A stretch of DNA of 64,000 bases from a virus (IMGVR_UViG_3300028840_006907:405618-469617); one strand, 5' to 3'. Numbered from the stretch's first letter, positions 115 through 58,022 are shown. Numbers and translations: made by a program. Notes: a model not told the origin generated them from the sequence alone.

Positions 115-630
115 ATGATTTATTTGAAAAATAGATGGAGACAGACTGAGGATTATTTTGAGGTTGTTTATATCACTTTTAAAGGATTTTGTCCAAAATG
201 TGCTGGGTTAGAAGTAATTGATGATGTCCAATATGATATTAGAGGTCATTTAAAGCAAATCAGAAATGAAAATCTTTTACTTCAAAATTTGGAAAAATTT
301 ACTGTTACTGAAATTCAGAGTAATGCTTTCCACACATTTATAGGAACTTCTTTAACAAAACTTTTGGGGCAAAGAATAACGGATGTCTCTTTTATATCAT
401 CGAAAGTTACTCAGGAAATAAATAGTACTCTTGAGGTTTTAAAAAGTCTACAGGATCAGTATGTCTCTACAGGTCGTGTTACTACGGATGGAGAGCTTTT
501 TGATACTATTGAAAGTGTTCGGGTCCGGTTTGATGAGAGTGATCCTACTATTTTAAGAACGGATGTAACTGTTTTGGCCAAATCAGGTCAGAATGTGGAT
601 TTTACACAATATTTGCAATTACCAGTATAG
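115..630 (+). CDS. hypothetical protein (171 aa)
   Basis: Track ORF, co-directional with and 10 nt upstream of the next large gene; no recognisable motif. Confidence 0.5.
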   Translation: MIYLKNRWRQTEDYFEVVYITFKGFCPKCAGLEVIDDVQYDIRGHLKQIRNENLLLQNLEKFTVTEIQSNAFHTFIGTSLTKLLGQRITDVSFISSKVTQEINSTLEVLKSLQDQYVSTGRVTTDGELFDTIESVRVRFDESDPTILRTDVTVLAKSGQNVDFTQYLQLPV

Positions 631-640
631 GATTTGAAAA

Positions 641-3600
641 ATGGCAATACCAGCTCCAGAAATACTTCTTCCTACAGGTGGGATGGATTATGCAACAGAT
701 ATAGCCACACAGACTTTATCTGGTACAACTTCTGCTGATACTCAAGAGATCCAGATAAATGGGTCAGTTCATGGTGTATCATATACTGCAGGAGAAACTA
801 TTTGGTCCTGGACAGGTACTTTGACTTTAGGTAGTAATGTAATCAATATAATAGCAATTGAGAAAGTCACAAGTTTGCCTAGTCCTGCTACTACGATTAC
901 TATAACATTAATTCCACCTGAAGATGAGGTGATTACGGTTAGTTCTCCTACTGGAGTACAGACATTACGTTATCAAGATAAAATCGAAATAAAGAATGTT
1001 CAGAATCCTGAACCCAATACAATAGGGTATAATTACTATGTTAGTACACAAAGTGGTGGGATAGATGGAGTTTATGCGAAAATCAATACTGATTACATAA
1101 CTGAATATACTTCATACGAAGATAAAGCAACTCTCATAAATACAGTTACTGATACAACTGGTAATATACGTGTGACAGTTACAACTGAACAAATAACCAG
1201 AGAATATTATTATTCGGTCTTTTTTGATCAGGAACGTTATACTGAATTAGTAGAAGCTGAACTATTACCAGCAGTATCTTTTAATCAGAATACTCCATTC
1301 TTTTTTGTTGTTACAGCTATAATATATGATCCAGTTCTTGGACAGGTAACTGAAAGTGCCAATTCGATTGAACTTCAGAGTTCTCCTGTTACTATTACGA
1401 CAGGAATAAGAACACTCCCTGCTAGAACTCAGAATGATATTATCCTTACTTTTAGTCAAGATCTTTTATTATCAAATACTGGGACTGATACAAAGCCAGG
1501 TACAGTGGTAAGAGATATGATGGATCCCATCTCGGAGGAGATGGCTAGAGTTTATGTAATTCAGGATTTTCTCGCTCGATCTCTATCAGTTAGTTCATTA
1601 TTGGATTTTGATGATGCTGATGGAGATGGTGAGAGTGATGCAGTAGAGGATTCCATTCCGAAAAAAGCTTTACAACTTGCTCTTATGCTTACTGATCCTG
1701 ACGATGTCCAGGCAGTTATTGATGCTCAATTTGATAAACTGGCTTCTAATGCTGATACAACAAGAAGATCTGCAACATATGCAGTGGGAGAGGTTACATT
1801 TTTTGTCACCGAAGCTCCTATAAGGGATATGGTAGTAAATGAGGGTGCTATAGTTTCTACTTTAGGTGATTTGGATAGTGGTATCCAGGCACAATCTTAT
1901 AGAACATTAGCTACAAAGATATTAGATTATGAAACTCGTGAAAGATTTTATAATTCGACAACAGGACGCTATGAGATGAGTCTTGATGTTGAGGCATTAA
2001 ATGTAGGTGAAGAAGGGAATACAGATTCTTATACAGTTAAAGTAGTTTCTTCAGGGGCCGATTCAAATTTTCAGGTAGAAAATCCTAATCCTATAAGTTT
2101 TGGTGAAGATATAGAATCAAATTATAATTTAGCCACTAGGATAATGTTGGCATTTTTTGCTGATACCGGTACTGAGGGAGGTTATGCTAAAATAGCTGCC
2201 AGTGTCTCTGGTGTAAGAAGAACTCGTATCGAAAAAGCCGGTGATCCACTAATGATCAGAGACTATGATCCTATAAGAGAAAAACATGTTGGTGGAAAGG
2301 TGGATGTTTATATCCAAGGATCAAGATCGAGACAAGTAACTGATCAGATAGCTTTTTCATTTGAAAGTATAGTATCGAGCCAAGGGGCTCAATCGGAAGA
2401 ACAATTCCTTGTGATAAATGCAGTGGCCTTTCAGTTTAAGACCACGAATCCCCGGGTAACATCACATACCCCCATCTTTGAAGTAAGTCGAGTATATAAT
2501 GCAACGAGAGCACAGGAATATGATATTTCTGGATACCAAATCATAGGTGATGGTAATACTGTTGATCTTGATGAAACTAAAGCTCAGAATGCTGCTATAG
2601 GTTTAGCTGCTACAGATGTAATAAAAGTCGATTACAAATTTAGGAGTTCGGATACTTTTGTTCTACAGAATCAACCTGTAAATGATATTGTCTCTATTGT
2701 GGGTCAATTATCTGGTACATTAACTTCTGATAACTGGGATTTAGTTACACTTGAAGATCCTTTGGCAGAAGGCCGGTCTACAATAGCACAAGATAGTGTG
2801 AGAATAAAATTTGCAAATAATTTACCTCTTACAGGTTTTCAAACAATTACTGATGAGGTTCATGTAATGATTTTGGGTAAAAATGAACCTCTTGATTTTT
2901 TAGGGGCTGACCCTACTTCTATTGTAGTTAAAAATTTGGCTAAGACTGTTACTTATGTATTAAATGTGGATTACAGAATCGATCCTGGTACTGATACTGA
3001 GGCTACTGAAATTATTATGATAGAATCAGGTAGTATCAGTAATGGAGAGCAGGTTTTAATAAATTATGTAGCAATTGAAAATTTTATTATAACTTATACA
3101 ACGAATGAGTTATTAGAAACTGTTCAAGATGAATTGGATGAATATAAGCATGCCTGTGCTGATGCCATAGCAAAACAGGCCATAGAAAATGGTGTTGATT
3201 TTGCTTTTACTGTGGTACCGAAATCTAATGTGGTAGATTTTAACACATTGACTTCTCAGATTACAACCTCGATAGCAAATTTTATAAGTCAATTGGATAT
3301 AGGTGTCTCACTTACTCAAAGTGATGTGGATAATCAAATAAGAAAAGTTGATGATGTAGATTATGTTGTCCTTCCGTTTACTCGTATGGTAAAATCTGAT
3401 GGCTCTCAGATTGTACGAGATGATATAGGTCAAGTACAATTTGAAGTATATAATGATGGTGTTACAAGATCTTATATAACTTCAGCAACGGTCCTTTCTT
3501 ATAATACTATTGATAAGGGTGGTGATGAGAATAAATTTAGAGGAGTATTTGAGAACACAGTTGCACTTATTTTACAGGATGATCCTCTTGATGTTTCGGG

Positions 3601-3826: not shown

Positions 3827-6800
3827 ATGGCTGAGAATTTAGGAACGGGTGTTTCTTTTGTTGATGAGAGTAATGGGTATAATTATGATAAAGTTGTTTT
3901 CCAAAAACAAAAGCCACCTTTAGATACTGAATTAAATCTTGCTCAAGAGATACAAAATTTACTGGCAAAAAGACATATAAAAGGAATGCCTTCTGGTTGG
4001 TTAAATATAGAGGACTTTTATACAAGTTCATTATTAGAAAACCAATTTTATACCCAAGATCCGGACACAGCTATTCCAGAATATGCTGTTGTGAATGGTA
4101 TGGTTCTTTATGTGACTAACACTGGTACTTCTGAAACAAATTCAAATTTGATCACTCTTACTGATCCTCCTACCTCAGGTAATCTTGTTAATGGTGTAAT
4201 CCTAGAAGTATGGAGAGCTTTATTAGATACAGAAACCGATAATAACAGACCTGATTCAACAGTGGTTATAGATTCGTTAATGGCTATTGATGCCGTTACT
4301 GAAAATAGTGCCTGGACAGTCGGGGAAAATGGGCTTATTCTAGCTACTGAAAATGGTGGTCAAACATGGTCGGTTCAATTAATTGATACAAAAAAGAAAT
4401 TAAATGATGTTCATTTTATAAATACAACAGTAGGTTGGGTAGCCGGTGATAATGGTGCCATAGGTAGAACTTCATCTGGTGGTGTAACTTGGCTCGTATT
4501 ACAGAGTGGCTATACTGAGAATTTCAATGGGATTCATGCAGCTACACATCTAATTGCTTGGGTTGCTGGTGATGGTGGTATTATTCTTAAAACCGTCAAT
4601 GGAGTTAACTGGTCGGCTCAAAATAGTAATGTTACAGCAAATCTTAATGATATTTATTTCTATGATAGTTTAGTAGGATGGGCAGTAGGAGATAATGGTA
4701 CTATAATAAAAACCACTGATGGTGGATCCAATTGGATAACATTAACAAGTGGTACCACAGAAAATTTAAACGCTGTCTTTTTCTATGATTTAAATTTTGG
4801 TTTTGCTGTTGGTGATAATGGTACAATTTTAAGATCATCTGATGGTGGGCTGTCCTGGGTTGATCAATCTGGTAACATATACACTGGTTCTGGTTATACA
4901 AGTCTTTCAGTGAATTACACTGATGTCACAATGGCCCCTTCTCTTGATATCCACGTGACCAATGAAGAGGTAACTTCCCAATTTACAGGTTCAAATAAAA
5001 ATTGTACTGTAGTGAATGTTCCTATGACTAAAGGTGATGGGTTAGGTACAACAACGAATAGCCCTGCTGATGTCGATGGTGAGGGTAATTTAAGTACTGT
5101 TGTAACTGTAAATGGTACTTCTGTTCTTATAGATAGCATTGATGGAACTACAGGTCAAATTATTCTTAATCAGGCTCCTCAAGCATGTGATACAGTCCTT
5201 GTCTCTTATTGGCATAAAGTCAGCCCTGATATTTTTACGGGTAGGGCATGGATTACAGGGGCATCTGGAACAGTGTTGATGAGTCCAGACATTGGTGCTA
5301 ATTGGAATCAACAAACTCCAAATACCAGCTATGATTTAAATGGTGTAAGTTTTGTTGATCAAAATAAGGGATGGGTAGCTGGAGCATTTTCAGTGATGCG
5401 ACATACTGAAGATGGTGGTACTACATGGACTACTCAAATCAGTGATACCGTTTCTCGAAGGGTGCAACGGGTTTATAATGAAGGTAATGTAGATACTGTT
5501 ATCTTTTTGGATGATGAAATGATCCATCCTGACACAAACATAGAAACGACAAAAAGAGTTCAAATTCAATATAAAATAAGAGTTATAGAAAATGTTGATC
5601 CCTTTTCATATCCGGATGCGGGGCTAGGCTCAGCGGGTATTGTGGCTCTAGGGCCAAATGCTACAGGATCATTTGCTTATCAGAACATGGGTTCTACGAC
5701 AGGTGATTATGGTTTATGGCAAGCGAAATGCTCTAATACAGTAGATGGGTACGCATGGGCTATCCCAATGTTTTTTGTCAATAGAAGAAATAGCACTACT
5801 TTTAATGCTGCCAATAATACAAATGGTTCTAATGCTAAAGGTACTTCAAATATCCGACCTGATCTTTTGACCGGTGTTGATGTTGTAGATCAGGATATTC
5901 TTGATGTCAGGAGACAAATATTTATCCCTTCAGTGACTGAATTACTAAATAGTAGTTTTGATGCCCTTATGAATAATCAGTTAAAAACTCGATTTTTCAG
6001 ACAAACCACTGGTGGTGATAGTTATTCTGTTGAGCCTTTACAATTGGATTATATCGCGCATGGTTCTGGTACTGAAATTGATGCTACATTGAGCGAGGCT
6101 GTTTCGGGACAAGTCACATCAATTACAACAACGAGTACAATATCTCAAAGTGTTCCTGCATCTACTTCTTTACCTTTTGATGTGACATTAAGTATTCCAG
6201 TAGGAACTCGGGGATTATTTCATCCTAATTCTATTTATTATACAGCTCGTTATGTAAGTAATAGTGCCACATATGATGGGAAACCTATTCCGGGAGAATT
6301 TACTGGTATAGGTACAAATTCAGTAACGTTTAATTTTAGTGCAAAAGTAAACACTACAAATGAAGACACTAATTTAGTCAGTTATGATATTGTGGCTCAT
6401 TATGTAATATTTAGTCCTAAGTCATTGAGTAAAATTCCTTCTACTCCTCAGCTAGTAGAAAATACAGGAACGGTAAGTGAACCTTCTTTTTTCTATAGAG
6501 GAGTATTTACCAGTGAAACTTCTGGTAGAAAGATTGAAGAATGGGATTCAGGTATTTCAGGATATCCGAGTTATACTCTAGCCTATCCTGTTATAGAGGC
6601 AGGAAGTACTGCACAGGAAGCCCGAGCTTCTTCGATTGAGGTACATTTATATATAAGACTAACTAGTACTGAAATACAAAGTATTAATCAGATTAAGATA
6701 AGTCAGGAAGTTTATCCTGATGTTGCAGATACGACTTCTTATTATAATCTTTACTGTGTCAGTGAAATAAATAATATCACTTCTGGTTTTAGTTTTAAGA

Positions 6801-7903
6801 TAGATGATATTGTAATCACAGATGCCATTTATATTGACAGTGCTTCTGGTTTCCCCTTTATCGAAGGTAATGTCATTGAAATTGTGGGTATGGCATTGGC
6901 AGCTACCGGTAATTCTTATACCAGAAATGGTGCAAGTGTTAATTTTACTCAGGGTGAGAAAAAAATAAGCCCATTTGCTTATTCATCTCGTTTAAAAATA
7001 ACTTCATTTCCTCCTGGGTCTATATCAAGTGTTCAGTTTACTAGCCTCGATGCTGATAGTGGTCAAATCTCCACAGCTTCTGGGGTATTTCTTGGTATAA
7101 GTACAACAGAAACTGTGAATAGTTTAACTGATCATTTTGCTTGGGTTGATGTTGGAGCGGGAGATGTTCTTACTCCAGTAACAGTGACAGGATTTAATAC
7201 CACGACTTTAACAGTAAATTTCGCTACTCCTATATCACCAACTAGTGTCAAGATACAGGCTTTAATAAAACAGGCTAATTTAATTTATGGCACTGATGCT
7301 GATGATGGATTACAGATAGCTTATAATTTTATTCCGAGTCAAACTCCTACAAATCTTCCTTCCAGTTTAATAGTAGGGATGGTTACTAATCCTACAAGTA
7401 TTTATATATCAAATTTAGGTACTGGAGGCAGTCTTGTAGATAAGGAACCTTATAGTTTCCCTATTGATAGTATCCCTGTAAATAATAGCTCTATTATTGA
7501 TGATAATGAATTTTATAATTTAGATCTATTTAGATTTTCTAATTTCTCAGTAGATAGTGGGTTTGTTCAGATGCCTACTATTGTTCCTGGTTCTTTTGGG
7601 GAAGAGTTAACTTTTTCAAGTTTAACTACTGATGAGTTGTTACGTACTTTTTATAGTACATGTGATACAGAATTTGCCTTCAGAACAGAAGGTATAAAAA
7701 TTGGAATACCGAGAAAGATATTTATCGCTACTATAGGAAGAGTAAAAGAGAACTCTACTCAATTATTACGAGGTGAATATGTTCTTATAATAATTTCCAG
7801 AGATAGCCTTACTGATTTAGAAAATTACACAGGTTGTGAAACAGGAAGTGGTAATGTTATCGGGATCTACCGATTACCGAATAAGCCATTGGTAAGAAAG
7901 TAA
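3827..7903 (+). CDS. giant putative structural protein with embedded BNR/Asp-box beta-propeller (1358 aa); paralogue of 13823..16876
   Basis: AAGGAG RBS upstream; seven S/T-x-D-G-G-x-x-W-like repeats (GGQTWS, GGVTWL, GVNWS, GGSNWI, GGLSWV, GANWN, GGTTWT); shared blocks with the 13823 ORF (VVFQKQKPPL, LEVWR, RVQIQYKIR, YAWAIPMF, DILDVRR). Confidence 0.7.
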   Translation: MAENLGTGVSFVDESNGYNYDKVVFQKQKPPLDTELNLAQEIQNLLAKRHIKGMPSGWLNIEDFYTSSLLENQFYTQDPDTAIPEYAVVNGMVLYVTNTGTSETNSNLITLTDPPTSGNLVNGVILEVWRALLDTETDNNRPDSTVVIDSLMAIDAVTENSAWTVGENGLILATENGGQTWSVQLIDTKKKLNDVHFINTTVGWVAGDNGAIGRTSSGGVTWLVLQSGYTENFNGIHAATHLIAWVAGDGGIILKTVNGVNWSAQNSNVTANLNDIYFYDSLVGWAVGDNGTIIKTTDGGSNWITLTSGTTENLNAVFFYDLNFGFAVGDNGTILRSSDGGLSWVDQSGNIYTGSGYTSLSVNYTDVTMAPSLDIHVTNEEVTSQFTGSNKNCTVVNVPMTKGDGLGTTTNSPADVDGEGNLSTVVTVNGTSVLIDSIDGTTGQIILNQAPQACDTVLVSYWHKVSPDIFTGRAWITGASGTVLMSPDIGANWNQQTPNTSYDLNGVSFVDQNKGWVAGAFSVMRHTEDGGTTWTTQISDTVSRRVQRVYNEGNVDTVIFLDDEMIHPDTNIETTKRVQIQYKIRVIENVDPFSYPDAGLGSAGIVALGPNATGSFAYQNMGSTTGDYGLWQAKCSNTVDGYAWAIPMFFVNRRNSTTFNAANNTNGSNAKGTSNIRPDLLTGVDVVDQDILDVRRQIFIPSVTELLNSSFDALMNNQLKTRFFRQTTGGDSYSVEPLQLDYIAHGSGTEIDATLSEAVSGQVTSITTTSTISQSVPASTSLPFDVTLSIPVGTRGLFHPNSIYYTARYVSNSATYDGKPIPGEFTGIGTNSVTFNFSAKVNTTNEDTNLVSYDIVAHYVIFSPKSLSKIPSTPQLVENTGTVSEPSFFYRGVFTSETSGRKIEEWDSGISGYPSYTLAYPVIEAGSTAQEARASSIEVHLYIRLTSTEIQSINQIKISQEVYPDVADTTSYYNLYCVSEINNITSGFSFKIDDIVITDAIYIDSASGFPFIEGNVIEIVGMALAATGNSYTRNGASVNFTQGEKKISPFAYSSRLKITSFPPGSISSVQFTSLDADSGQISTASGVFLGISTTETVNSLTDHFAWVDVGAGDVLTPVTVTGFNTTTLTVNFATPISPTSVKIQALIKQANLIYGTDADDGLQIAYNFIPSQTPTNLPSSLIVGMVTNPTSIYISNLGTGGSLVDKEPYSFPIDSIPVNNSSIIDDNEFYNLDLFRFSNFSVDSGFVQMPTIVPGSFGEELTFSSLTTDELLRTFYSTCDTEFAFRTEGIKIGIPRKIFIATIGRVKENSTQLLRGEYVLIIISRDSLTDLENYTGCETGSGNVIGIYRLPNKPLVRK
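4270..5460 (+). other. BNR (Asp-box) beta-propeller-like domain inserted in the 3827..7903 protein
   Basis: Seven Asp-box-like repeats spaced about 40-60 aa apart; region absent from the paralogue 13823..16876. Boundaries approximate. Confidence 0.55.
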
Positions 7904-8682: not shown

Positions 8683-8870
8683 TTATATTTTCCTTTTTGT
8701 TAATATTATTTATATATTTTTTATAATATATTATTAGATTTACCATTGAGCAAGAGAAAAAACATTTTAAACCAATCAAATACTTCAGTAAAAAGAATAA
8801 TACCTCGCGAAGGCCATCTTTAATAAAAATTTATCAATTATAATTTTCTTTTAATACTTGAGATATATTT

Positions 8871-11800
8871 ATGACTCAAATATATCTACCAGATTCAGAA
8901 GAACTCGGAAGACGCCGATTCCATGATGCTAAAAGTGATCGTCGTAATTTAAAAAATCTCGCTGAGCAACGTCTCCTTGAGATGCGAACGTTATTGCCTT
9001 CTAATTACCCTAAAGATCCCTATAGTAGTAATCTTGCTTTATTCCATCGTTTTAATGCTCGGGAGCTGTCTCGAATAAGAATCTCTAATGATGATATATC
9101 AAGAGATTCTCAATACACTACGACAAGACCAGAGTATCTTCATCAGATTCTTGGTGAGAGGCTTTTTTTAGGCAATAGAATAGCTCCTCTTGGTTACAAT
9201 GACCAGACATATAGAGAATTTTTAATAGCGATTAAAAACACTTATTTGCGGGGATCGCGGGTTGATGATATTGAAGCATTAGCCAGTCAGTTTACAGGTC
9301 AGGAAGTTATCATAAAAGAGTTGTATAGGGAATTAAGGAATCCTGATACATCTCTTGATGTCACTGACACAAATTACATGGTTGTTGAAGCATTGATACC
9401 TGGTCAATTACCTGCTGGTTATAATATAACTTCATTATTAAATGATTTAGATTTTTACATTAATTTAGTGCGGCCAGCGCATGTTTTATATGATACACGA
9501 TTGATATGGACTGAGACCATTGATGTAAATAAGACAACAGATATCTATTTTGGTGATACCGGTGGTGGTTGTGTCCCTCTTTATATTTTTGACCCTTTTG
9601 ATGAAACAACGCTTATGGCGTTGCAGGTATTTGTCCTTCCTACTAGTGAAGGAGCAACAGGTCGAATAGATTCCATTCATCATTGGGATTACCTTTTTTA
9701 TTTGGAAGATGGCACCAGAGTATTAACTGAACCAGGTACTCAGGGAACACAGATTTTTGATGTAAATGGTCGTCAGATTAGTTTTAGCTCTCTTGAAATA
9801 GGTGATCATGTAAAAATAAATTATCAAATTATACCTGGTAATTTTCAATTCTGGTGGTATCCTGTAGGTTTGTTTCCTACATGGAGTTCACAGTTCTATA
9901 GAGATTATTACAGACTTCCCATATTCCAGGAATATGTAAAAAAACATATGGATTCTAAGGGGAGATTTCCTCTTCAGATAAGAACAACTGAAACGACCGT
10001 TTGTGATCGTTGGGTAACAGATGCTCTTCAGCCTTATTATGAAGATTTAAGAACAAATTGTTCCAGTGGAAGTGTCCAGTCTAAAGATTATTCTTCTACT
10101 CTTAACATCAGAATGGGAAGTGGTCATTTTGCCAATCCTTATGGTACAAACCAGACAGCTCTGCCTGGAAATGAATTTGCTTTTTTCATGGAAAACACTC
10201 CCTTAACTGATGGATCGAGTAATCCAGCTACAGTTTCAGATGTTTCTGTGATGTTAGATGGAAGTTCTTTACCTCCTCAACCGGTAGTATATGTCGATGC
10301 TAGTTCCGGGAAAGTGCAATTAAGTGAGGACCATGAATATTGGGATAATACAGCATTAACTTTTCCTATTCCTGGGGAAGAGTTCCAATTTGATTATTCT
10401 TATCTTCAGGATAGTACTAATTATGATACATCATCTATATATGTCTATGGAGTGGGTAGCTGGCAGATGCCAAATGCTCCTCTTGTAGAAGGTGATAGTA
10501 CGGGTATTCTTGCGGATACAAGTGATGTAACATTATCTGTAGATGGTACAGTAATAAGTAATGCAATAACAGATGTAAATGCTTTATTAGGGCATGTAAC
10601 AGTTAATCAACTTTCGAGCTTTTGGAATAGTTCTGAATTAGGACGTTTACCTCAGGTAGGAGATGAGTTTTTATTTAGTTTCTTTTATGGTAAGAAATAT
10701 CAATATTCTTGTCTTTTTGATGAATTGGGTAGAACTTTTGATACTTATATAGGTCCGAATTCAACTTATGGTATTGTTTTCGACGGAGAATTAAACCAAA
10801 ATCCTGAAACAGCTCCTATAACACCAGATGCAACTGCAGTAATAGGTTATCGTTATCGGGGTTATTTATTACATCATAGTTCGGTATTAAATTCTCCTGA
10901 TACGTTACAATTAAATACTTTTCAGAAACCTGCTACTCGTGCTTCTATAATAAATCAGGCTAATACTATAAATCATTTTAATATTTTCTTTTCACCTGAA
11001 TTTCTTTATGATACTACGGCATATGATTATTTAGATGATTCTTATCTTGAAAATGGATTAGACCCGATTCTGAAATTAAATGTAGGTACTCCTCCTTTTC
11101 AAAAGACATGGTCATATCATCCAGGATTGGTTAACAGTAGAAAATTACAAGATATAAGAACAAATCATCGTTTACTACTTTATTCTGATTTACTACTGAA
11201 AGAGTTCCAAGAAGGTAATGAAGACATACCTTTAAGTTCTATATGTGATTCAGAACGGGTAGAATTTAGAATACGTATTGATGGTGATGATATACCGCCT
11301 TTAGAAGAATGTCCTCCGTGGATTTTATTTGATTCTGTTCAGGTCGATGATGTTGAAGTTACAGTCCCGGGATTTTATCAGGGTGTACCAAATGTCAGAG
11401 TACCTGGAATGAATTTACGCGAAAGTTTTATTCTTAGGGAATTGGAATCTACTGGTGTTGGCGAATATACTTATACCTTTAATACTGATAGTAGTGCTAC
11501 TCCTGAATATTACTTACCTGCAACATTTCCATATACGTATAATGGTGATACAATTAGCTTTCCTGCTTTACCTGTTATAGATATTAATGGTAATCCGGCA
11601 ACGATTAGTGATATAGAAGTTAGGGTAAATGGAGTTTTATGGACTGTATTAAGTCTTGATCCAGTGACAGGTTTTGTACAGGTAAGTCCGTATCCGGCTG
11701 GTCCGGCTATTCAAGTAGAGACAAAATATTACATAAACAATGTTGTGACAATGCCTATGGCAAATTGGGATTGGTCTAGGATTCTTGATGACGATGATGT

Positions 11801-22472: not shown

Positions 22473-25400
22473 ATGGCACCAAAAAAACAATTTGTAAACA
22501 CAGGATTTATGGAATTTGTGGAGGATACTGTTCAAACCAGAATAGCCGAAATGCCATGGATGGCTGATCGTACGTTTAAATTAGCCAAGAGCATGGAAGA
22601 AGTGGAAAATTACATTGATAGGGCGATAGAAGCGAAAAGATGTGCCCTTGATTTGGAAACGACAGGACTTAATACAAGGGTAAAAAAAGTAGATGGTAAA
22701 ATTGTTCCTATTGGTAAAATAGTAGGTTTTGCTTTATGTTATGATCCGAAAGTGGCCATTTATATCCCTATTAATCATAGAGAAGGGATAGAATTTAATC
22801 TTCCAGAAGAGGCTGTTTTAAAGGAGATAAAACGTCTTTGTTATAATTGTATTACAATATACCATAATGCTAAATTCGATTTAACTTATTTAAAGAATTA
22901 CGGTATTGTTCTTGATAATCATAATCAATTCGAAGATACACTTTTGCTGGCGTATTTGCATGATTCAGGAAGAAAAGCCAATAAATTAAAGGATCTCTCT
23001 CCAGAATTACTTGATCAACCAATGTTAAAATTTAATGAGGTTGCCAAAGAAGGTCATTTTGATCTTGTCTCCCCTGATGTGGGGTATACATATGGAGCCT
23101 CTGATGCTATGTGTACTATGGATTTATATATCTTTTTTACGGAACAGGAAATTATAAAGAGTCAACAGATGATATATAACTTAGAGAAACGGGTTGTATT
23201 TGTTATGATGGATATGGAAGCAAATCTAATAAAAATTGATGTTCCATATCTCAAGGACTTAAAAACAAAAGTTGAAAACCGTATAGAAGATATTAAAAAA
23301 GAGATACATCAATTGGTCGGTTATGAATTTAATTTGGGAAGTTCACAGAAATTAGGTAAAATACTATTCGATGATTTGAAATATAAATATCCAGAGAAAA
23401 CAAAAACCAAATCTGGGCAATACAGCACTGATAGTAAAACCTTAAATAAAATAGCTGACCTTTACCCCATTGTTAAGAAGATCATAAATTTCCGTGGATT
23501 GGAAAAAGTTTTATCGACATATATTAATAATCTTTTGAACAACCACGATGAAGAAGGTTTTGTAAAACTTCAATTTAAACAGACTGGAACTGATACCGGA
23601 AGATTTTCGAGTCCTGGTGGTCAGGGTATTCATATAGATGGGTCTTCAGGAGTTAATGTCCAGAGTATTCCAAAGATGCCTAGTGAGGATAATCCTGACA
23701 TTGATATGAGAAGGGCGTTTATTGCTCGTCCTGGTAAAACGATGGTAGCGATTGACTATGCAAATGAAGAGATGCGGGTAGCTACAAATATTTCGAATGA
23801 GACTGCCTGGATTGAATCGATTCATAAAGGAATTGATTTCCATACTGCTACAGGTGCTATTATCTCGGGAAAAGATCCTAAGGATGTATTAAAAAGTGAG
23901 AGGAAAATAGGAAAGACAGTTAATTTTTTGGCCCTTTATTTAGGAGGCCCATTTACTCTTGCAGGTAATGCTAAAATAACTGTACCGGAGGCCAAAAAGA
24001 TTCTAGCCACATTTTTTGCAGGAGTTCCTAAACTGAAGAAATGGATTGACCGGGTGATCGTGGTAGCTAGAAAAGAGAAATTTGTTAAAACTATTTTTGG
24101 GCGTACTAGACCGTTAAATAAGTACTATGATAGTGGGGATAAGGGATTGGCTGCTCATGCAGATCGATGTGCAGTTAATACAAAAATTCAAGGTTGCCTT
24201 TGTCAAGAAGAGCGCTGTTTAACAACAGAAGGTTATTTATCTATTATAAAAATCAAAAAGTTAAAGGAATCAGGCCAAAATTTAAAAATATGGACTGGGG
24301 TTTCATGGGAGGATTTTGAAGTATTGGATCGTGGAGAGGCTCAATTAGCGATAATTGAATTAAAAAATGGAATGATTCTTCATTGTGATACACGGCATGA
24401 AGTATTAACAGTAAATAATGAAAGATATGAATTTAAAAAATTTAATGAATTAACAGAAGATACTAATATATGTATATCTCGCCCTCAATTATTAAAATTT
24501 GGGAGTTATCCTGAGGAAATTATTTTTGAGGGAAATGTATGGAATGCACAGAAATTGAAAGTGAGTACGGCAGAGGAGTGGGATTTTATAGCCTATTTAT
24601 TAGGATGTGTTATTGGAGATGGCTCAATATACATTGATAAAAAGGCATCTAAATATGTTATAACATTAAATTTTGGTGAAGAAAAGATAAGAAGAATATT
24701 TCCTGATCTTAAGAGAAAATTAAATGATCTCGGATTAAATATTTCGGAACCTGTTTTAAATAAAGGTAGTAAAGGTATTTGTTATAAAACGAGTATCTGT
24801 TCCGTTACTTTAACAAAACTTTTTGGAGAAATGGGTTATCATTTTCATGATGCTCGTGATAAGAGAATCCCTCAACGAATTATGGAATCCCCTATAAAAA
24901 TGAGACAATCATTTTTACGAGGTTATTTTGATACAGATGGATGTAAGAAAGAGGCCAATAAATATGGTTTCCATACTCCTAATAAAGATCTATTGAGAGA
25001 TATTCAATTATTAGCTTGGACCCTAGGATGTCCCTCTACTATTTATGATTGTGGTGATGGCTCATCCATATTTAATTGGATGAATTATCGAATTTTTGCG
25101 GAATTAATGGACTTAACTTATAAAAAAGAAGAGAGAAAATGTAACACACAAAATATGCCTTTACCTGATTTTTTAAGAGAGCCTATATTAAATTCTTTAG
25201 GGAATTGTTATGTAAAAAATGGGAATGATCGCTCATATGTATGTAAAGTTAGGAAGGGTAAAAATGTTAGTTTACCTGGAATAGTGTCATTATTAGAAAG
25301 TTATAATTGTGAACTACCGGAAATTTATTATCATTCCAAATTAGAAAAGAAAAGAGTTTTAAGTAAAAAAGAAGTTACATACACTTTATCAGTAAAATCT

Positions 25401-26261
25401 CCTTTACATCGGTTTGATTCTGCTGGAATTATAAGTAAAAATACTTCGGCGGATATTATGAAGGCTGTCATGGCCCGGATGAACTCCTGGCTCACGAGAA
25501 ATAATCTGCATGATGATATAAAAATATTGATTACCATGCATGATGAATTGGTTTTTGAGATTACAACTGAAAAATTGCAGATACTGGTACCAGAGATTTG
25601 TAAGATCATGCAGTTGAATGATATTATTCAGGGTCAATTGAAATGGCCCATTCCTTTGGAAGTTGATATACAGTATGGTGATACTTGGAGAGTTAAAGGT
25701 GATTTTCTTAAGGATTTTCCTGATTTGAGGAATAAATTAAGTGAGCCTTTAATGGAATTTGAATCTTTACAGAAGATAAAAGATGATGTGCCAAAAGATA
25801 AAAATGATGAACCTCCGGTGGAAAGTAATAAAATTGAAGAAGAAAATTCAGAGAAAGATTCAAATGAGGTACCAGATAACCAGATTATAGAGGAAAAAAC
25901 TCCTTCTGAAATACAAGATATAGAAAAGTCTGAACAACATGATGTACCTAAAGATAAGGAGGTTTTGGAGAAAGTTGATAGTGGTACTGTAGATAGTAGT
26001 AAAATATCAGAAAAAAAAACTCTAAACGGCGGTGATATATCGGGTCAATATTTGATTTATACTCTGCGAGAATTGAGTACGATAAGTTCACGATGGTTGA
26101 ATGATATTTTGGTTTTTTTGAATGATGAGGGCAATCGATATGAAGAGAAAGATAAAAAAATTTTAAAAATCCGTGACAGATCAGGGAACTCTTTATTAGT
26201 TTCAGAGTATAAAGTACACCCTGAAAGTTTTTCCCTTTTGGCAAGATTTTTTGGGATATGA
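22473..26261 (+). CDS. family A DNA polymerase with 3'-5' exonuclease domain, interrupted by an intein, plus C-terminal extension (1262 aa precursor)
   Basis: Exo motif ALDLETTGL; Pol I motifs DYANEEMRVA (A), RKIGKTVNFLALYLGG (B), NTKIQG/TSADIMKAV split by the insert, ITMHDELVFE (C). Confidence 0.9.
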   Translation: MAPKKQFVNTGFMEFVEDTVQTRIAEMPWMADRTFKLAKSMEEVENYIDRAIEAKRCALDLETTGLNTRVKKVDGKIVPIGKIVGFALCYDPKVAIYIPINHREGIEFNLPEEAVLKEIKRLCYNCITIYHNAKFDLTYLKNYGIVLDNHNQFEDTLLLAYLHDSGRKANKLKDLSPELLDQPMLKFNEVAKEGHFDLVSPDVGYTYGASDAMCTMDLYIFFTEQEIIKSQQMIYNLEKRVVFVMMDMEANLIKIDVPYLKDLKTKVENRIEDIKKEIHQLVGYEFNLGSSQKLGKILFDDLKYKYPEKTKTKSGQYSTDSKTLNKIADLYPIVKKIINFRGLEKVLSTYINNLLNNHDEEGFVKLQFKQTGTDTGRFSSPGGQGIHIDGSSGVNVQSIPKMPSEDNPDIDMRRAFIARPGKTMVAIDYANEEMRVATNISNETAWIESIHKGIDFHTATGAIISGKDPKDVLKSERKIGKTVNFLALYLGGPFTLAGNAKITVPEAKKILATFFAGVPKLKKWIDRVIVVARKEKFVKTIFGRTRPLNKYYDSGDKGLAAHADRCAVNTKIQGCLCQEERCLTTEGYLSIIKIKKLKESGQNLKIWTGVSWEDFEVLDRGEAQLAIIELKNGMILHCDTRHEVLTVNNERYEFKKFNELTEDTNICISRPQLLKFGSYPEEIIFEGNVWNAQKLKVSTAEEWDFIAYLLGCVIGDGSIYIDKKASKYVITLNFGEEKIRRIFPDLKRKLNDLGLNISEPVLNKGSKGICYKTSICSVTLTKLFGEMGYHFHDARDKRIPQRIMESPIKMRQSFLRGYFDTDGCKKEANKYGFHTPNKDLLRDIQLLAWTLGCPSTIYDCGDGSSIFNWMNYRIFAELMDLTYKKEERKCNTQNMPLPDFLREPILNSLGNCYVKNGNDRSYVCKVRKGKNVSLPGIVSLLESYNCELPEIYYHSKLEKKRVLSKKEVTYTLSVKSPLHRFDSAGIISKNTSADIMKAVMARMNSWLTRNNLHDDIKILITMHDELVFEITTEKLQILVPEICKIMQLNDIIQGQLKWPIPLEVDIQYGDTWRVKGDFLKDFPDLRNKLSEPLMEFESLQKIKDDVPKDKNDEPPVESNKIEEENSEKDSNEVPDNQIIEEKTPSEIQDIEKSEQHDVPKDKEVLEKVDSGTVDSSKISEKKTLNGGDISGQYLIYTLRELSTISSRWLNDILVFLNDEGNRYEEKDKKILKIRDRSGNSLLVSEYKVHPESFSLLARFFGI
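24195..25442 (+). mobile_element. intein with LAGLIDADG homing-endonuclease domain, inserted in the polymerase (about 416 aa)
   Basis: Insert begins with Cys after KIQG and ends with Asn before TSADIM; LAGLIDADG-like motifs LLGCVIGDGSIYID and FLRGYFDTDG; N-terminal boundary ambiguous by about 21 nt. Confidence 0.7.
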
Positions 26262-26311
26262 GGGGATAAATTTTCTCTTTTGTATTAAATAAAAAAAGTT
26301 AAAAATATTGT

Positions 26312-26340
26312 TTGCGAAAAATAAATTTTTCTTTTATATT
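26312..26340 (+). promoter_or_regulatory. candidate sigma-70-type promoter (TTGCGA, 17-bp spacer, TATATT) upstream of the sigma-like gene
   Basis: Read directly in the 250-bp intergenic region; hexamers occur by chance in AT-rich DNA. Confidence 0.2.
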
Positions 26341-26511
26341 AGTTTTTGATTAAAAATTAAGCTGAAATTGGCTTATTCTAAGTATCTACAATTTATAGAC
26401 TTACAAATATAAAAAGCTGAGTTAAATTCGAGCCATAAATTTTACGTAGAGACTAGGGTAAGCTCAAAAAACATAAATACTAAAATAACACAAATAAAGG
26501 AGCGTCCCTCA

Positions 26512-27273
26512 ATGCTACCTACTAATGATATTGCTGTCTTTGCCCAAAAAAATGATGCAGAATTTCGTGCTCTAGTCCGAAAACAGTGCGAGTATCTTGA
26601 TTATCCTGGTTCACCTGATGATGTTGTCCAAGAGCTTTATGTGAAGTTCTTAACAAAAAAGAAAATCATTGAAGCTTATGATCCCAGTTATAATGTACAA
26701 ATATCTTCTTACCTTTTTAAAATTATCCGTAATTTTATAATCACCAGAGTGAAAAGTCACGATGGTCGATTTCGTCGGTGCCGTGTTTTAACCCCTTCTC
26801 CTACTGATGATACTAACGAGTTCGATCTTATTCCCGCTTATTATGATGTTTCAGATGATTTCTACGACAATCAATATTTTAACAATAATTCTTTTATGGA
26901 AGAATTCAGCGATTTTGAGCGTCAGTTTTCAAAATCACCTCAGAACATAAAATTTAAGTTACGAAAGAGACAACATAAAAATACTTCTCTCAATTTTTTA
27001 AAAATATTGGAACGTCTTCAAAAGCGTGGTAAAATCGGTGAAGAATTTAATGAAATCAAGGATTTAATCACAGAGATAGAAGAAAACGGGTGTACTCTAT
27101 TGGACCTTTTCCGACTTCTGTATAAGGGATACAACAATAAAATGATCGCTCGGATTTATGGAGTATCAACAACTACAATAAGTGCTATGAAAAGCAAATT
27201 AGCAAAAGCCATGATTAAATACGGTATAAAGTATGATCGAGCTACGGTGTCCAAAGTGTCAATCCAAAGTTGA
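26512..27273 (+). CDS. putative sigma-70/ECF-like sigma factor (253 aa)
   Basis: Region-2-like VVQELYVKFLTKKKIIEAYDPSYNVQISSYLFKIIRNFII and region-4-like HTH KMIARIYGVSTTTISAMKSKLAKA. Confidence 0.5.
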   Translation: MLPTNDIAVFAQKNDAEFRALVRKQCEYLDYPGSPDDVVQELYVKFLTKKKIIEAYDPSYNVQISSYLFKIIRNFIITRVKSHDGRFRRCRVLTPSPTDDTNEFDLIPAYYDVSDDFYDNQYFNNNSFMEEFSDFERQFSKSPQNIKFKLRKRQHKNTSLNFLKILERLQKRGKIGEEFNEIKDLITEIEENGCTLLDLFRLLYKGYNNKMIARIYGVSTTTISAMKSKLAKAMIKYGIKYDRATVSKVSIQS

Positions 27274-27482
27274 GATTGAAGACAAAACAGTTGAAGGGGA
27301 TAAAAGGACTGCAGTTTTCTGTAAGAAAGAAGGATGTTTCTTCTATAAGAATGCATTAATCGGTTTAGAGAGGCTGGAGTCAAAAGTCTACATATCTGAA
27401 TCCCTTGTTTAAAAAAATTTAATTTTCTTCTTATTGTGATCATCTCTTAATGTCGTATTATCTATAGGAGGTTTTTTGGAAA

Positions 27483-45076: not shown

Positions 45077-45249
45077 CAGATAATAAAAAAGAATGTGATG
45101 CTTTAAATGGTGATTTTGATGGAATGAGTGCTACTGATGGTAATGTTACATATACAGTAAATGGTACTTTTATGGATTCCAATGGATGTTTGAAAACCTA
45201 TGGGGATGGGTATGATGAATCTTTCATAGTAGACACGGATTATTATTAA
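45073..45249 (+). CDS. small hypothetical protein (58 aa, below track cut-off)
   Basis: ATGA overlap with the stop of 44246..45076; the track instead lists an antisense ORF 45103..45303. Confidence 0.3.
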   Translation: MTDNKKECDALNGDFDGMSATDGNVTYTVNGTFMDSNGCLKTYGDGYDESFIVDTDYY

Positions 45250-45339
45250 AAAAATAAATTTAAATAAATTTTCGAATAATGCATAATTTAAATAATAAGA
45301 CATCAGTGATTTTAACTATTAAACAACTCTCTAAATGTT

Positions 45340-45528
45340 ATGCTCTACATCATTTTATATATTGGTTTTGTTATTATTTTTATGCTTGGTCTTTATTTTA
45401 TTCGAGGAATTTATACTTCCATAGGTTGTCTGGCCCAAATGTTATATACTCTTGAAAGTAGAGTAATAATGTTAGAAAGACAGATGGAAAGGTTAAATGA
45501 ATCTAAGAAATCAGAAATAAAAGAATAA
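45340..45528 (+). CDS. small membrane protein (62 aa)
   Basis: Single hydrophobic helix then charged tail; last rightward ORF before the strand switch. Confidence 0.35.
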   Translation: MLYIILYIGFVIIFMLGLYFIRGIYTSIGCLAQMLYTLESRVIMLERQMERLNESKKSEIKE

Positions 45529-45620
45529 TTTCTATGGGAAAAAAGTATTCTGGAATCTTTTGATACTATTATAAAAGAATGTGATGATATTGAAGAGACA
45601 ATGAGTATAAACCCCGATGA

Positions 45621-45640
45621 CCCTGAAATATCTTTCAGGG
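45621..45640. terminator. perfect 8-bp stem / 4-nt loop hairpin in the convergent intergenic zone
   Basis: ccctgaaa tatc tttcaggg read directly; lies between convergent gene ends (45528/45694); no strong U-tract on either side. Confidence 0.3.
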
Positions 45641-45693
45641 TTCAACGAAATTTCTCGAAACTAATATCAATACTAAATTTGTAGCATATTAAT

Positions 45694-48600
45694 TTATGGT
45701 GAATTCCTATAAATGGCATATATTGAGTAGACATAATTTGATACAGTACTACTTCCGAAGTGATTTGGCATTCCATCAGACCACGATGATCCATTAACCA
45801 AAGCTCTTCCTGAATCATGTTCTTCATACCGTACTTCTGTAGCATTTTCAAATACCCATGCTAACCAGATCTTAGTTCCTGCTAAAATATTTACCGGTGT
45901 TGTTAAACTGATTGTTTGCCATCCTTCATTTGAATTTACATTTGTTTGAGGAGTGATGCCTAATAAGTTCTCAGGAACGTTATCTCCATCATATACAGCC
46001 AAAATAAGGTTGCCGGTACCACCACCATGGTAAATGGCTATACTGTCTATATAGTCATTATATGGCATTGTGAAAGGCATCGCACGTCTTGGGGTAGTTG
46101 TTACTTTCTTCGGAAAAATGGTTGTGTACCCTATTGTTGGAGCAACATGAGCCACGGCAGATCCCGGCACAGACCAATGAGTAATATTATAAGCTCTTCT
46201 AGGACTGTTATCTATTGCTCTTACCCTATAAGTACAGAGATTAGGATTATAAATTCCAGTATCAACGTAAATAGGGCTTTCTTGCCATTTGCTATTATGG
46301 CATGGTCCTCCAATACATTCAAAATGATATTCAACTCCATTCTCATCTGTGGCTTCAACAGCTTCCATCATTATAGAATTATGTCCCATAATTACCGGAG
46401 CAACTTCCCAGGATAAAGGGTTTGGTTGTGGTGGGGAATAATCGGGTTGTGGATTTGATCTTAATTCAAAAGGAGCCATACGAGTTTTATTCCCAGTTCT
46501 AAGATATATTCCAGTAACGGCTACAGGATATAATGTATCTATTCCTGAGGTAGTTGATACATCAATTAAATCTTTTTTAAGATCAAAGTTGTAGTCATGG
46601 ATAAGAGTATCTGGGACAGCACCGATGCCAACCCGAGCTTCTTTTCCATTACTATACATTTTTTTAAATCCTTTATCATACCGAGTATCATAAGCAATAC
46701 GGCATATTGTGTTTTTATTAGTTATTACTTCTACAAAGAGTCTAAAAGGATCGAATGATGTAATATTTGTGAATCCATAAAATTGGTGAGTATTGGGTAA
46801 TGGAAATTTGAATTTATACAAAGTAGCCATACCACTATCACTGATAAATTCAGTGAAGACTCCAACTGTATTTAAGGAAGTTCCTTGTTTAGTTCCCAGT
46901 ATTTTCCATACCTTGTAATGGTCAGGATGGTTAACAGATGTGTAAGGAGTTCGATCTGTCCATAATACATCTTTTTTTGTGTCGCCTAAATGCAAACCAT
47001 AAAGGAGTATTTCTCGTTCTATTCTGAAAGATATTCCTAATACACCAATAATTTCCATTTTGGGTATACCTTCGGCTGAACAAACACTATCGAGATCTTC
47101 TTGTAAAAAGCCATAATAACTATGCCAATATACTCCAAATCGGCCATCACCTATCCCGATACGGGCATCTCGGCCTGAAACATAATGGGCTATTCTTTTT
47201 TCGGTCCAGTTTCTGGTATCATAAGCAATATCGTAGTCAATAACAGTATCATTTACAGTATCTACAACTAATACTTCGTAATACATTCTAAAATCACTGG
47301 TATAATTTTTAATACCAATATAAGAAAAGAATTGAGACACATTAGGTTCATCAAATTTGAGTTTGAAACTTGTGGCCATTCCATTAGTGGTGAGTAGTCT
47401 TGTACAATAGGTACTATCTTCATATTCATAGAATTTTGTTACGATGGCATTTGAATCATTGCCTCTTATGTCCCAATTAGCTAATACTATGCTGGTATCT
47501 CGAATATAAAATTTATCACTCATAGCATTAGTAGAGTCATGAAAAAATGTTGGTATTTCCATTTCAACGGTATCACATTTAAATCTAATTTCAATAAGTC
47601 GGGTGATTCTTTTGGGAACTTTTCTTAATGCTACAGCAATTTCATTTAAAGAGTGTTGTAAATGATGATTTACTCTTTTCCATGATCCATCATTATGTGG
47701 GCCTATACCATAGCGCAATTCACCATTTTTACTGATATATTTATCCCGATGCCGAGTATCAAAAACTAGAAGGATTGTGTCATTGTCTTTTGTTTCCAAA
47801 TAATGAGTGATTCTGTAATGTCCCCATGATTTTAATCTATAATGGGCATCTAAATAAGGGGCATGCATATCGAGGTTAAAAGAGTCATTCATGAATAGTT
47901 TCCATCCTACATTGAGATTCCCTTCTAATCTGATTAACATATCCATAAAAGTATTTCCAATATTTACTTTATCGGTATCACTTTGAAGGATAGTATATTT
48001 GGTTCCCCGAGCTGAAGTGTAATTTCTCCAATCGCCATATTGTCTTATATCTTTGTAAAAATCCATTGTAATTATATCAGAGATCCCAGACATAGACCCG
48101 TTGTCTAATCCAATTACACTATAAGTTGAAATTAGCGATTGATTTATATTTCGATCTACATAGAATGTATCAGATATAGTATCAATAGGACTTGTGTCTT
48201 TATATACTATATATTGGCTTGTAGGGATACTATTCCAACGAAGCATAGCTGAATCTCTATCAGCTTGAATAACTATTAAATTTTTAGGGTATATTTGGGA
48301 AATATCTGTCTGGGTACAAGTAGCATCATAACATACTTGAAAATTATCAATATTAAATTGAAGAAGACTATCTCGGCAAAAGTGGGTTATACCATATATT
48401 TCTAAAGCTGAAATTAAATTGAGATTTTCAGCGAAACTTATAACTCTGAGAGGAGATTCCTGTTCCCAGCCATTGGCAATTGCTTCACTATCTGACCAAG
48501 TAGGATCTAATTTGACACTTAAGTGGGACCAGGAGTTAATTTTAAAATCTTCTCTTGTAAATATTTTTTTCCATGCTTTATTAATATTGCATCTTAATCT

Positions 48601-49824
48601 GACTTCGAAAAAATTCATATCAGGTGTTTTGATGTCGAAATTGATTCCGGTGATATTATTACAAGCTAAATTACCTGTATATCTTTTATCGACAGATACT
48701 CCGATTTCATCATGTCTGATATTGTTTGATTTCACTTTTAATGAGGCTCCAGGGTTTCCTTTATCTATGTCATATGAAATAGAGGATCGAAGGCTTTTCC
48801 AATTACTTAAATTATCGCTATTATTCCATTCTTCTTTAAAGGCTTGTCTATCACAATCAGTTGTATCTATTTCATAAAAATTAACTGTATCTCTTTTTGC
48901 TGGCATCAAGATTTTAATCCATCTGACTTGATACTTCTCTAATACGTCAAGAGAGACTTGTTTTACTTCCATTCCTAAACAGTCTACTTTATATACGTTA
49001 TATTCATCTATGGAAATATCTCCTTCTCTAAAACTGTAGTCAGCATTAGCATTAAGAATAGGTAAATAGTTCCATACATCATTTTTATCTTTAACAAGAG
49101 CCATTACATCGGCGAGTTGACCGTCATGGAGATAAAGGGTATCGGTTGAGGGTAATTTTTTCATATAGAAATAAATAACAGATGAATTTGCCTGTGTTAA
49201 TTCAGGGCTTATTAAACTGGTGCTAGTAGTATCCCATTGTTCACTGGAATAATTGCAGGAAGGCCCGAAATCATATTTATACAGAGTGGAATAGAATACT
49301 GAAGTATTTAACCAGGATCGGGGTGATTTGAAACCAGGATTAGGGAGTATTATTAAAGTATCTTGAAGTTGAATAATTACGGGAAAATCTAATCCTATGG
49401 TACTGAATCTGATTTTAGATCCATCTGCAGTAGCAATGGGGTGGCCTTTCTCAATCCATTGGCCCTCAGTGACAAATATGTCCTTTAATAGATTGTAAAG
49501 ACCATAGTAATATGATTCAGTATCATTTTTATCATAGAAGTGTTTAACAATCACTACAAGATATTCATATCCTAACTTTTTTCTTAGACTATCTGTTAAA
49601 GCCATATCGACTTGCCCATAGCCAACAGAGTATACAGTATCACCATTTTCAGTACTGAAATAAAATTCTTCGTCTAAACCGAATCCATCTTTCCAGTCTG
49701 TACTTCTGTACCAACCATCTCCATCGATAGCAACATTTTTTAAAAGATATGATATTTCATCCGCTTGAATAGCCAACCCTGTGAGGAACAGGTTAATAAT
49801 TATGATTAATAGATATTTCAACAC
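45694..49824 (-). CDS. giant secreted protein (1376 aa), function unknown
   Basis: N-terminal signal-like MLKYLLIIIINLFLTGLAIQA; single long ORF. Confidence 0.7.
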   Translation of the reverse strand: MLKYLLIIIINLFLTGLAIQADEISYLLKNVAIDGDGWYRSTDWKDGFGLDEEFYFSTENGDTVYSVGYGQVDMALTDSLRKKLGYEYLVVIVKHFYDKNDTESYYYGLYNLLKDIFVTEGQWIEKGHPIATADGSKIRFSTIGLDFPVIIQLQDTLIILPNPGFKSPRSWLNTSVFYSTLYKYDFGPSCNYSSEQWDTTSTSLISPELTQANSSVIYFYMKKLPSTDTLYLHDGQLADVMALVKDKNDVWNYLPILNANADYSFREGDISIDEYNVYKVDCLGMEVKQVSLDVLEKYQVRWIKILMPAKRDTVNFYEIDTTDCDRQAFKEEWNNSDNLSNWKSLRSSISYDIDKGNPGASLKVKSNNIRHDEIGVSVDKRYTGNLACNNITGINFDIKTPDMNFFEVRLRCNINKAWKKIFTREDFKINSWSHLSVKLDPTWSDSEAIANGWEQESPLRVISFAENLNLISALEIYGITHFCRDSLLQFNIDNFQVCYDATCTQTDISQIYPKNLIVIQADRDSAMLRWNSIPTSQYIVYKDTSPIDTISDTFYVDRNINQSLISTYSVIGLDNGSMSGISDIITMDFYKDIRQYGDWRNYTSARGTKYTILQSDTDKVNIGNTFMDMLIRLEGNLNVGWKLFMNDSFNLDMHAPYLDAHYRLKSWGHYRITHYLETKDNDTILLVFDTRHRDKYISKNGELRYGIGPHNDGSWKRVNHHLQHSLNEIAVALRKVPKRITRLIEIRFKCDTVEMEIPTFFHDSTNAMSDKFYIRDTSIVLANWDIRGNDSNAIVTKFYEYEDSTYCTRLLTTNGMATSFKLKFDEPNVSQFFSYIGIKNYTSDFRMYYEVLVVDTVNDTVIDYDIAYDTRNWTEKRIAHYVSGRDARIGIGDGRFGVYWHSYYGFLQEDLDSVCSAEGIPKMEIIGVLGISFRIEREILLYGLHLGDTKKDVLWTDRTPYTSVNHPDHYKVWKILGTKQGTSLNTVGVFTEFISDSGMATLYKFKFPLPNTHQFYGFTNITSFDPFRLFVEVITNKNTICRIAYDTRYDKGFKKMYSNGKEARVGIGAVPDTLIHDYNFDLKKDLIDVSTTSGIDTLYPVAVTGIYLRTGNKTRMAPFELRSNPQPDYSPPQPNPLSWEVAPVIMGHNSIMMEAVEATDENGVEYHFECIGGPCHNSKWQESPIYVDTGIYNPNLCTYRVRAIDNSPRRAYNITHWSVPGSAVAHVAPTIGYTTIFPKKVTTTPRRAMPFTMPYNDYIDSIAIYHGGGTGNLILAVYDGDNVPENLLGITPQTNVNSNEGWQTISLTTPVNILAGTKIWLAWVFENATEVRYEEHDSGRALVNGSSWSDGMPNHFGSSTVSNYVYSIYAIYRNSP

Positions 49825-57998: not shown

Positions 57999-58022
57999 AA
58001 ATTTTCCTTTGTTAAGAGTGTA

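Follow-up and report, generated by a model that had tools for sequence, protein, structure and literature searches.

Sigma factors encoded by phages are best known from a few well-studied systems. In the Escherichia coli podophage phiEco32, early genes use sigma70, and the phage's own sigma factor, gp36, drives the middle and late genes with the assistance of gp79, a protein for which no homology to known transcription factors is reported (PMC12276001). The SPO1 factors gp28/gp34 and T4 gp55 have comparable roles, for which essential functions are cited, and ~13% of reference phage genomes carry at least one sigma factor (PMC9429907). Large phages without a polymerase of their own regularly carry sigma factors (PMC7824862, PMC7162821). 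Here we describe a sigma-70-family gene, together with the conserved non-coding region that precedes it, in a 64,000-nucleotide stretch of viral DNA (IMGVR_UViG_3300028840_006907:405618-469617; hereafter, the window). Positions are counted from the first nucleotide of the window and lie on the plus strand unless otherwise noted. We think it probable that the gene encodes a functional, divergent sigma-70-family factor which, expressed from a host-type promoter, retargets the host core polymerase to phage promoters.

A sigma factor is to be expected in a large phage; the family to which this one belongs has not been studied previously. The proposed role resembles that of SPO1 gp28/gp34 and T4 gp55, in which the phage sigma factor replaces the host sigma factor on the host core polymerase and thereby switches temporal classes. 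T4 gp55, however, has no region 4 and depends on gp33 and the sliding clamp; the protein described here does have a region 4-like domain. It has no detectable sequence homology to phiEco32 gp36 (PDB 9m7y), which was not among the PDB entries recovered by profile searches at an E value of ≤1. The jumbo phages that lack an RNA polymerase of their own (group 2 of Iyer et al., PMC7824862) are likewise large and tailed and encode a sigma factor; they possess a family B polymerase, T4-like capsid genes, and gp55/gp33-like or RpoD-like factors (PMC7824862). Unlike them, the lineage described here has an intein-bearing family A polymerase and a sigma family of its own.

A divergent sigma-70-family protein

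The sigma gene occupies positions 26512..27273 and encodes 253 amino acids (aa) from an ATG start codon. Its homologues match at E values of 1e-96 to 1e-41, and because their N termini are conserved, the start codon is fixed. A Shine-Dalgarno sequence, AGGAG, lies at 26498..26502, and its GGAG core is invariant in both of the alignments that we used to assess it (A2 and A4). The open reading frame is a real, conserved gene.

Profile and fold matches establish the domain identity of its product. The region-2-like segment that a first-pass annotation of the window had reported is borne out by Pfam: Sigma70_r2 (PF04542) matches residues 27-84 with 27.5 bits, above its gathering score (24). Region 2 as a whole spans approximately residues 20-85 (26569..26766) and aligns with region 2 of SigW and sigma-E. 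Within it, the region 2.2-like motif DDVVQELY carries the D-x-x-Q-(D/E) hallmark, and the region 2.3/2.4-like motif SSYLFKIIRN carries the (W/Y)-L-x-x-I-x-x-N hallmark. Both align with the same motifs of SigW and sigma-E in the family profile matches (the RpoE sequence used in one of the region 2 comparisons was entered by hand), and residues D37, Q40, S65, and N74 are invariant or nearly so across the family.

The region 4-like helix-turn-helix spans approximately residues 175-238 (27034..27225), with the helix-turn-helix string ARIYGVSTTTISAMKSKLAKA at residues 212-232. Within the FliA/WhiG model, it matches the region 4 portion. The NCBIfam model TIGR02937 (sigma70-ECF) aligns residues 20-234 with positions 12-161 of its 165, covering both domains in sigma order, and PHROG 1740 and PHROG 351, both annotated as "RNA polymerase sigma factor," match as well. 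In the AlphaFold (AF2) model, which is of moderate quality, the predicted local distance difference test (pLDDT) lies at 75-92 in region 2 and at 65-76 in region 4 and drops under 50 across residues 83-128. Sigma factors, isolated sigma2 and sigma4 domains included, account for nearly all of the best fold matches to the model: they make up the top 50 matches of a Foldseek search against the PDB, and the best matches in the viral database BFVD are phage sigma factors. Both the sigma2 and the sigma4 fold were found in the predicted structure. Sequence and structure prediction together identify the product as a divergent sigma-70-family protein in which two DNA-recognition domains, sigma2 and a sigma4-like one, are joined by an unusually long linker.

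That linker comprises ~90 aa (roughly residues 85-175; 26767..27033) and is composed of a variable, low-confidence part (residues 83-128), a family-conserved part (approximately residues 124-160), and an insertion that is specific to the subfamily and is seen relative to the wider family profile. The conserved segment ends in a basic LRKRxHK motif, and its conserved columns include N124, F135, L150, and R153. The best sequence and fold matches to region 2 are extracytoplasmic function (ECF; group 4) sigma factors such as SigW, sigma-E, and SigH, and like them the protein consists of sigma2 followed by sigma4 without region 1.1. It departs from the minimal ECF architecture because of its length of 253 aa and its long, partly family-conserved interdomain linker; ECF linkers are short and the proteins total ~170-220 aa. 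Unlike true ECF factors, it also falls just under the TIGR02937 cut-off and far below the cut-off of every ECF equivalog.

The protein has 12 close homologues. A search with the family profile recovered 172 representative clusters at E values of ≤1e-3, 90 of them at ≤1e-10, these clusters being metagenome representatives at 50% identity. Sigma70_r2 is matched by 42 of 60 sampled family members (best E value, 4e-11), and mean column identity is 43%. When three family members were compared by tblastn with 50,697 GenBank phage records, no match was obtained, and a pattern scan and tblastn of GTDB (one genome for each of 185,579 species) returned no bacterial relative. The family is therefore a new, apparently phage-only branch of the sigma-70 family.

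We gathered orthologous loci from metagenomes and IMG/VR; 13 are non-redundant, with G+C contents of 31-50% and sigma identities down to ~27% (individual loci are cited below by L numbers). Each holds a single sigma copy, and no sigma paralogue was found in the window or in any orthologous locus. The orthologue in L004 (10001..11086) has an additional ~110 aa at its C terminus, for a total of 361 aa; L013 and L017 encode orthologues of 280 and 303 aa, respectively. The IMG/VR search returned one contig with the sigma gene and none with the gene that follows it, and the contigs recorded with an identical sigma protein reach 469,617 bp in length.

The conserved promoter and predicted leader of the sigma gene

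A conserved non-coding region (26262..26511) separates the sigma gene from the DNA polymerase gene upstream (PolA). It is exactly 250 bp long, as the first-pass annotation had it, and its A+T content of 75.6% (versus 66.9% for the window) confirms that it is AT rich. It contains no open reading frame of ≥20 aa, no tRNA, and no match to Rfam. Its rank as the longest intergenic region holds in the sense that it is the longest clearly non-coding stretch in the gene map of the window, larger apparent gaps at 45077..45693 and 57664..58022 holding plausible short open reading frames. A smaller apparent gap of 114 bp (39214..39327) is probably coding as well and hence not intergenic, since a small CxxC...CxxC protein can be read from an ATG at 39220. 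Gap length is 227-255 bp in 12 of the 13 orthologous loci and 467 bp in L011.

The predicted promoter, reported earlier and found where it had been placed, consists of a -35-like hexamer, TTGCGA (26312..26317), and a -10-like hexamer, TATATT (26335..26340), separated by 17 nucleotides. At the equivalent place, all 13 loci carry TTG(A/C)nn and TAT(A/T/C)TT; the full pattern, TTGMnn-17/18-TATnTT, is found in each of them between -176 and -214 relative to the start codon, with an 18-nucleotide spacer in two instances. The site approaches the consensus in relatives of higher G+C content: in the three loci richest in G+C, the -35 hexamer is a complete TTGACA, and the whole site in L011 reads TTGACA-17-TATATT. 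Judged from the window by itself, the site, a 9/12 match, stands at chance level, for 2 kb contain 11 of this kind, versus 8.0 ± 3.0 in shuffled sequence. Support for it comes from its conservation across loci: a shuffled gap yields a qualifying site within the same 40-nucleotide position window in 1-7% of trials per locus. The 13-locus conservation is the phylogenetic footprint of a housekeeping-type promoter and bears out the site noted in the first-pass annotation. The strict sigma-promoter pattern occurs five times in the window, three times in intergenic DNA, and one other occurrence (8753..8725, minus strand) is correctly oriented. There is no sign here of the autoregulated AAC/CGT-type promoter of ECF sigma genes.

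Upstream of the -35 hexamer, TGTATTA is followed by an A-tract (26279..26299); the T, G, and T columns are invariant in alignment A4, and the relatives carry TGT(A/C)AA plus an A-run at this place. These sequences may constitute an UP-like element or an operator. The TGTCAA element forms an inverted repeat with the -35 hexamer in three relatives, as CTGTCAA/TTGACAG in L019 (~555..700) and as GTCAAG/CTTGAC in L005 (~9780..9810) and L007 (~9490..9520). The leader of L019 also repeats a 14-mer, CTGTCAAAAAGTCC, ~50 nucleotides before the ATG. The repeat elements of these three loci may be operator pairs.

Downstream of the -10 hexamer, from which its start is deduced, a 5' leader of ~165 nucleotides (26347..26511) is conserved in length. 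It contains a box, GCCATAAAT (26432..26440), that is conserved across loci: 12 of the 13 carry (G/T)CCAWAAWT between -72 and -100 relative to the ATG, and L019 has GCCATAAAC. The consensus is (G/T)CCAWAAAY, located mostly near -75 to -80 from the start codon. An A-rich conserved element follows ~45 nucleotides before the start codon, and the GGAG of the ribosome-binding site is invariant. A nucleotide profile built on the leader finds a single match in each locus, with no other in the window. GCCAWAAATT was considered as a repeated promoter element and rejected, with 17 matches in the window against 19 expected and the leader profile matching once per locus.

Among the closer relatives, the nucleotide conservation of the leader is about equal to that of the coding sequence. 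This conservation in the absence of coding potential, together with the preservation of gap length and several internal boxes over large divergence, would suit a gap that mainly encodes a small regulatory RNA, or else a riboswitch or thermosensor acting in cis, with the promoter serving that RNA. We give that possibility little credence, because RNAalifold returned neither a consensus structure nor covarying pairs with 7 or with 13 leader sequences, Rfam is silent, no terminator lies between promoter and ATG, and the conserved elements are short boxes, as protein-binding sites would be. The conserved upstream and leader elements indeed look like protein-binding sites.

The zinc-ribbon neighbour and the replication locus

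A four-cysteine zinc-ribbon gene of 59 aa (27233..27412) overlaps the sigma stop codon by 41 nucleotides. Four cysteines of its product (CPKC ... C-x4-C) are invariant, the YISES tail is conserved, and its mean column identity, 73% versus 43% for sigma, makes it the better conserved of the two. Of the 11 loci long enough to show it, 10 carry the gene, and L019 lacks it. Its similarity to Zn_ribbon_4 is weak, searches found no match to characterised families and no likeness to known anti-sigma families, and its AF2 model (pLDDT, 58.5) is too poor for a fold search. An intrinsic terminator follows the zinc-ribbon gene in L017, so the sigma and zinc-ribbon genes are bicistronic there.

ECF sigma genes are usually followed by the gene for their anti-sigma factor, and a small, tightly coupled gene likewise directly follows the sigma gene here. 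Unlike in ECF systems, this neighbour is a four-cysteine zinc ribbon and not a ZAS-type HxxxCxxC helical anti-sigma domain. Nothing links it to phiEco32 gp79. Because it is tightly coupled to the sigma gene, we regard the zinc-ribbon protein as a candidate sigma partner, either an anti-sigma factor or a co-factor.

The PolA gene directly upstream of the gap (22473..26261) encodes a family A DNA polymerase of 1262 aa with a LAGLIDADG intein and is the last gene of a replication block that also includes genes for an SNF2 helicase, a DnaB-like helicase, and a primase zinc finger. Every locus that reaches far enough shows one gene order: SNF2 helicase, DnaB, primase zinc finger, PolA, gap, sigma, zinc ribbon, glycosyltransferase, and AAA ATPase. 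The sigma gene, its position, its promoter and leader, and its zinc-ribbon neighbour are all conserved. The PolA intein, of ~410 aa, is inserted between ...KIQG and TSADIM...; PolA orthologues in relatives lack it and are 829-850 aa long, and in L004, L007, and L015 it is the SNF2 helicase, not PolA, that bears an intein.

The window, with a G+C content of 33%, encodes baseplate, tail-fibre, and virion genes. Its PolA is ≤31% identical to GenBank phage counterparts, and the window has no close relative among GenBank phages. The window is therefore a piece of an uncultivated tailed phage. No RNA polymerase genes were found in the examined part of the genome (64 kb).

Several other genes of the window deserve mention. 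An 813-aa protein (35187..37628) matches the shoulder domain of the major vault protein (PF11978), and a NADAR-domain protein (34276..35112) adjoins it; both are unusual in a phage. Two long proteins are probably tail associated: one of 1376 aa (45694..49824, minus strand) has an N-terminal M23 peptidase-like domain just below the Pfam cut-off, and one of 1358 aa (3827..7903, plus strand) has BNR/sialidase-type repeats and adjoins the baseplate J gene.

A proposed role with the host polymerase

We propose that the sigma gene and the overlapping zinc-ribbon gene would be transcribed soon after infection by the host RNA polymerase holoenzyme. Transcription would begin at the sigma gene's own housekeeping-type promoter, TTGnnn-17-TATATT, with its A-tract upstream, and the conserved leader boxes probably set the timing or level of expression. 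The sigma gene is probably early because its own conserved promoter would be read by the host housekeeping holoenzyme; gene 28 of SPO1 is likewise an early gene read by the host holoenzyme. The sigma protein would then bind the host core polymerase and replace the host sigma factor, with region 2 on the beta' clamp helices and region 4 on the beta flap. The new holoenzyme would initiate at phage promoters that the host sigma factor does not use, and would thus open the next temporal class, in line with the redirection to middle or late promoters suggested in the first-pass annotation. We infer three parts of this scheme: that expression is early, that the protein binds the host core polymerase, and which genes it targets.

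A number of results count against this proposal. On the side of the protein, the TIGR02937 score of 41.0 bits stops just short of the cut-off of 42.9, the AF2 model has a mean pLDDT of 64.5 with one third of the chain below 50, and the E values of the Foldseek matches are only ~1e-2. Neither of the Pfam region 4 models, Sigma70_r4 and r4_2 (PF04545 and PF08281), matches this protein, and they are weakly matched by only 3 and 1 of 60 relatives, respectively. The profile test proposed in the first-pass annotation still comes out in favour of a sigma factor: region 2 is matched in Pfam above its cut-off, and the region 4-like helix-turn-helix is covered by the sub-threshold TIGR02937 alignment. 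The GerE/LuxR model, in turn, scores 23.0 bits on this C-terminal helix-turn-helix, just short of its own cut-off of 23.5.

On the side of regulation, the window yielded no shared candidate target promoter that exceeded shuffled controls, a matrix built from a second promoter-like motif of the relatives marked no intergenic sites there, and no terminator was found between PolA and the sigma gene. Transcripts of the replication operon may therefore read through into the sigma gene, and its expression need not be exclusively early. Finally, the 64 kb examined belong to a contig reported as 469,617 bp, and an RNA polymerase or more sigma factors may lie elsewhere on it.

The GerE score raises a different identity for the protein, that of a LuxR/GerE-type helix-turn-helix regulator acting as a repressor or activator on operators and not as a polymerase subunit. 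We judge this to be very improbable. The LuxR-type helix-turn-helix and sigma4 are structurally homologous, so cross-matches to GerE are expected, and even so the model does not reach its cut-off. The N-terminal domain is above the Sigma70_r2 cut-off, keeps the hallmark residues of regions 2.2 and 2.4, and is a sigma region 2, not a receiver or ligand-binding domain, and TIGR02937 runs across both domains in the order found in sigma factors.

The failed search for target promoters, for which the first-pass annotation had suggested a motif search upstream of the structural genes, can be set out as follows. An exhaustive hexamer-spacer-hexamer search of the upstream regions of the window gave nothing above shuffled controls. 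The top 7-mer in oriented upstream regions, TGTAATA, occurs in 6 regions versus 0.7 expected, an enrichment (uncorrected P ~9e-5) that is not significant after multiple-testing correction. Its sites include 12190, 12839, and 43102 on the plus strand and 62096 on the minus strand, lie 50-95 nucleotides before start codons, and precede a virion-protein gene and three other genes. One site falls in a probable small coding region, and four are in oriented intergenic DNA versus ~0.6 estimated by chance. The sites share no common upstream or second element, and the 9-mer TTTGTAATA, with one mismatch allowed, is not enriched overall. TGTAATA recalls the gp36 motif AATGTA, a resemblance only, and we retain it only as a lead.

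The second promoter-like motif, CTTTAAT-N16/17-GTAYTAT, recurs in the clade of L004, L005, L007, L009, and L015, where the SNF2 operon and the gene that follows the zinc ribbon are each preceded by it; in relatives it also precedes a few small genes. Such sites are found at 311, 687, 10816, and 19004 in L015, at 2389 and 10995 in L005, at 5669 in L009, at 11428 in L004, and at 10904 in L011. At the two orthologous places, the window has sequences of the form CGTATWAT, namely, CGTATAAT at 17933 and CGTATTAT at 27454.

Auxiliary phage sigma factors that are dispensable for lytic growth do exist (PMC9429907), and the absence of an identified phage target promoter from the window searches would suit a factor that, in the manner of the sporulation-like sigma factors found in Bacillus phages, reprograms host genes rather than driving the temporal programme of the phage itself. 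We nevertheless consider such a role improbable. The scan of one GTDB genome per species found no bacterial relative, the best scores against bacterial sigma families are far under the equivalog cut-offs, and the gene is fixed in the replication module among relatives that share ~27% identity, a pattern typical of a core function and not of a recent moron.

Beyond retargeting of the host polymerase by the sigma factor, we have entertained a more elaborate arrangement, which we consider rather unlikely as a whole: that sigma factor, zinc ribbon, and promoter-leader form a self-contained developmental switch, with the zinc ribbon as a new kind of sigma partner and the conserved boxes as its operators. 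The zinc ribbon could then delay the switch as an anti-sigma factor, or it could displace the host sigma factor and stabilise the phage holoenzyme as gp79 does. The timing operators would be the GCCAWAAAT box and the TGTmAA A-rich elements, which bracket the promoter.

Phage sigma factors are a classical device of temporal control and useful orthogonal parts for synthetic biology. The family described here is an untapped branch of the sigma-70 family, and it belongs to a lineage of large uncultivated phages. For that lineage, the promoter, the leader, and the zinc ribbon provide a concrete, testable regulatory module.
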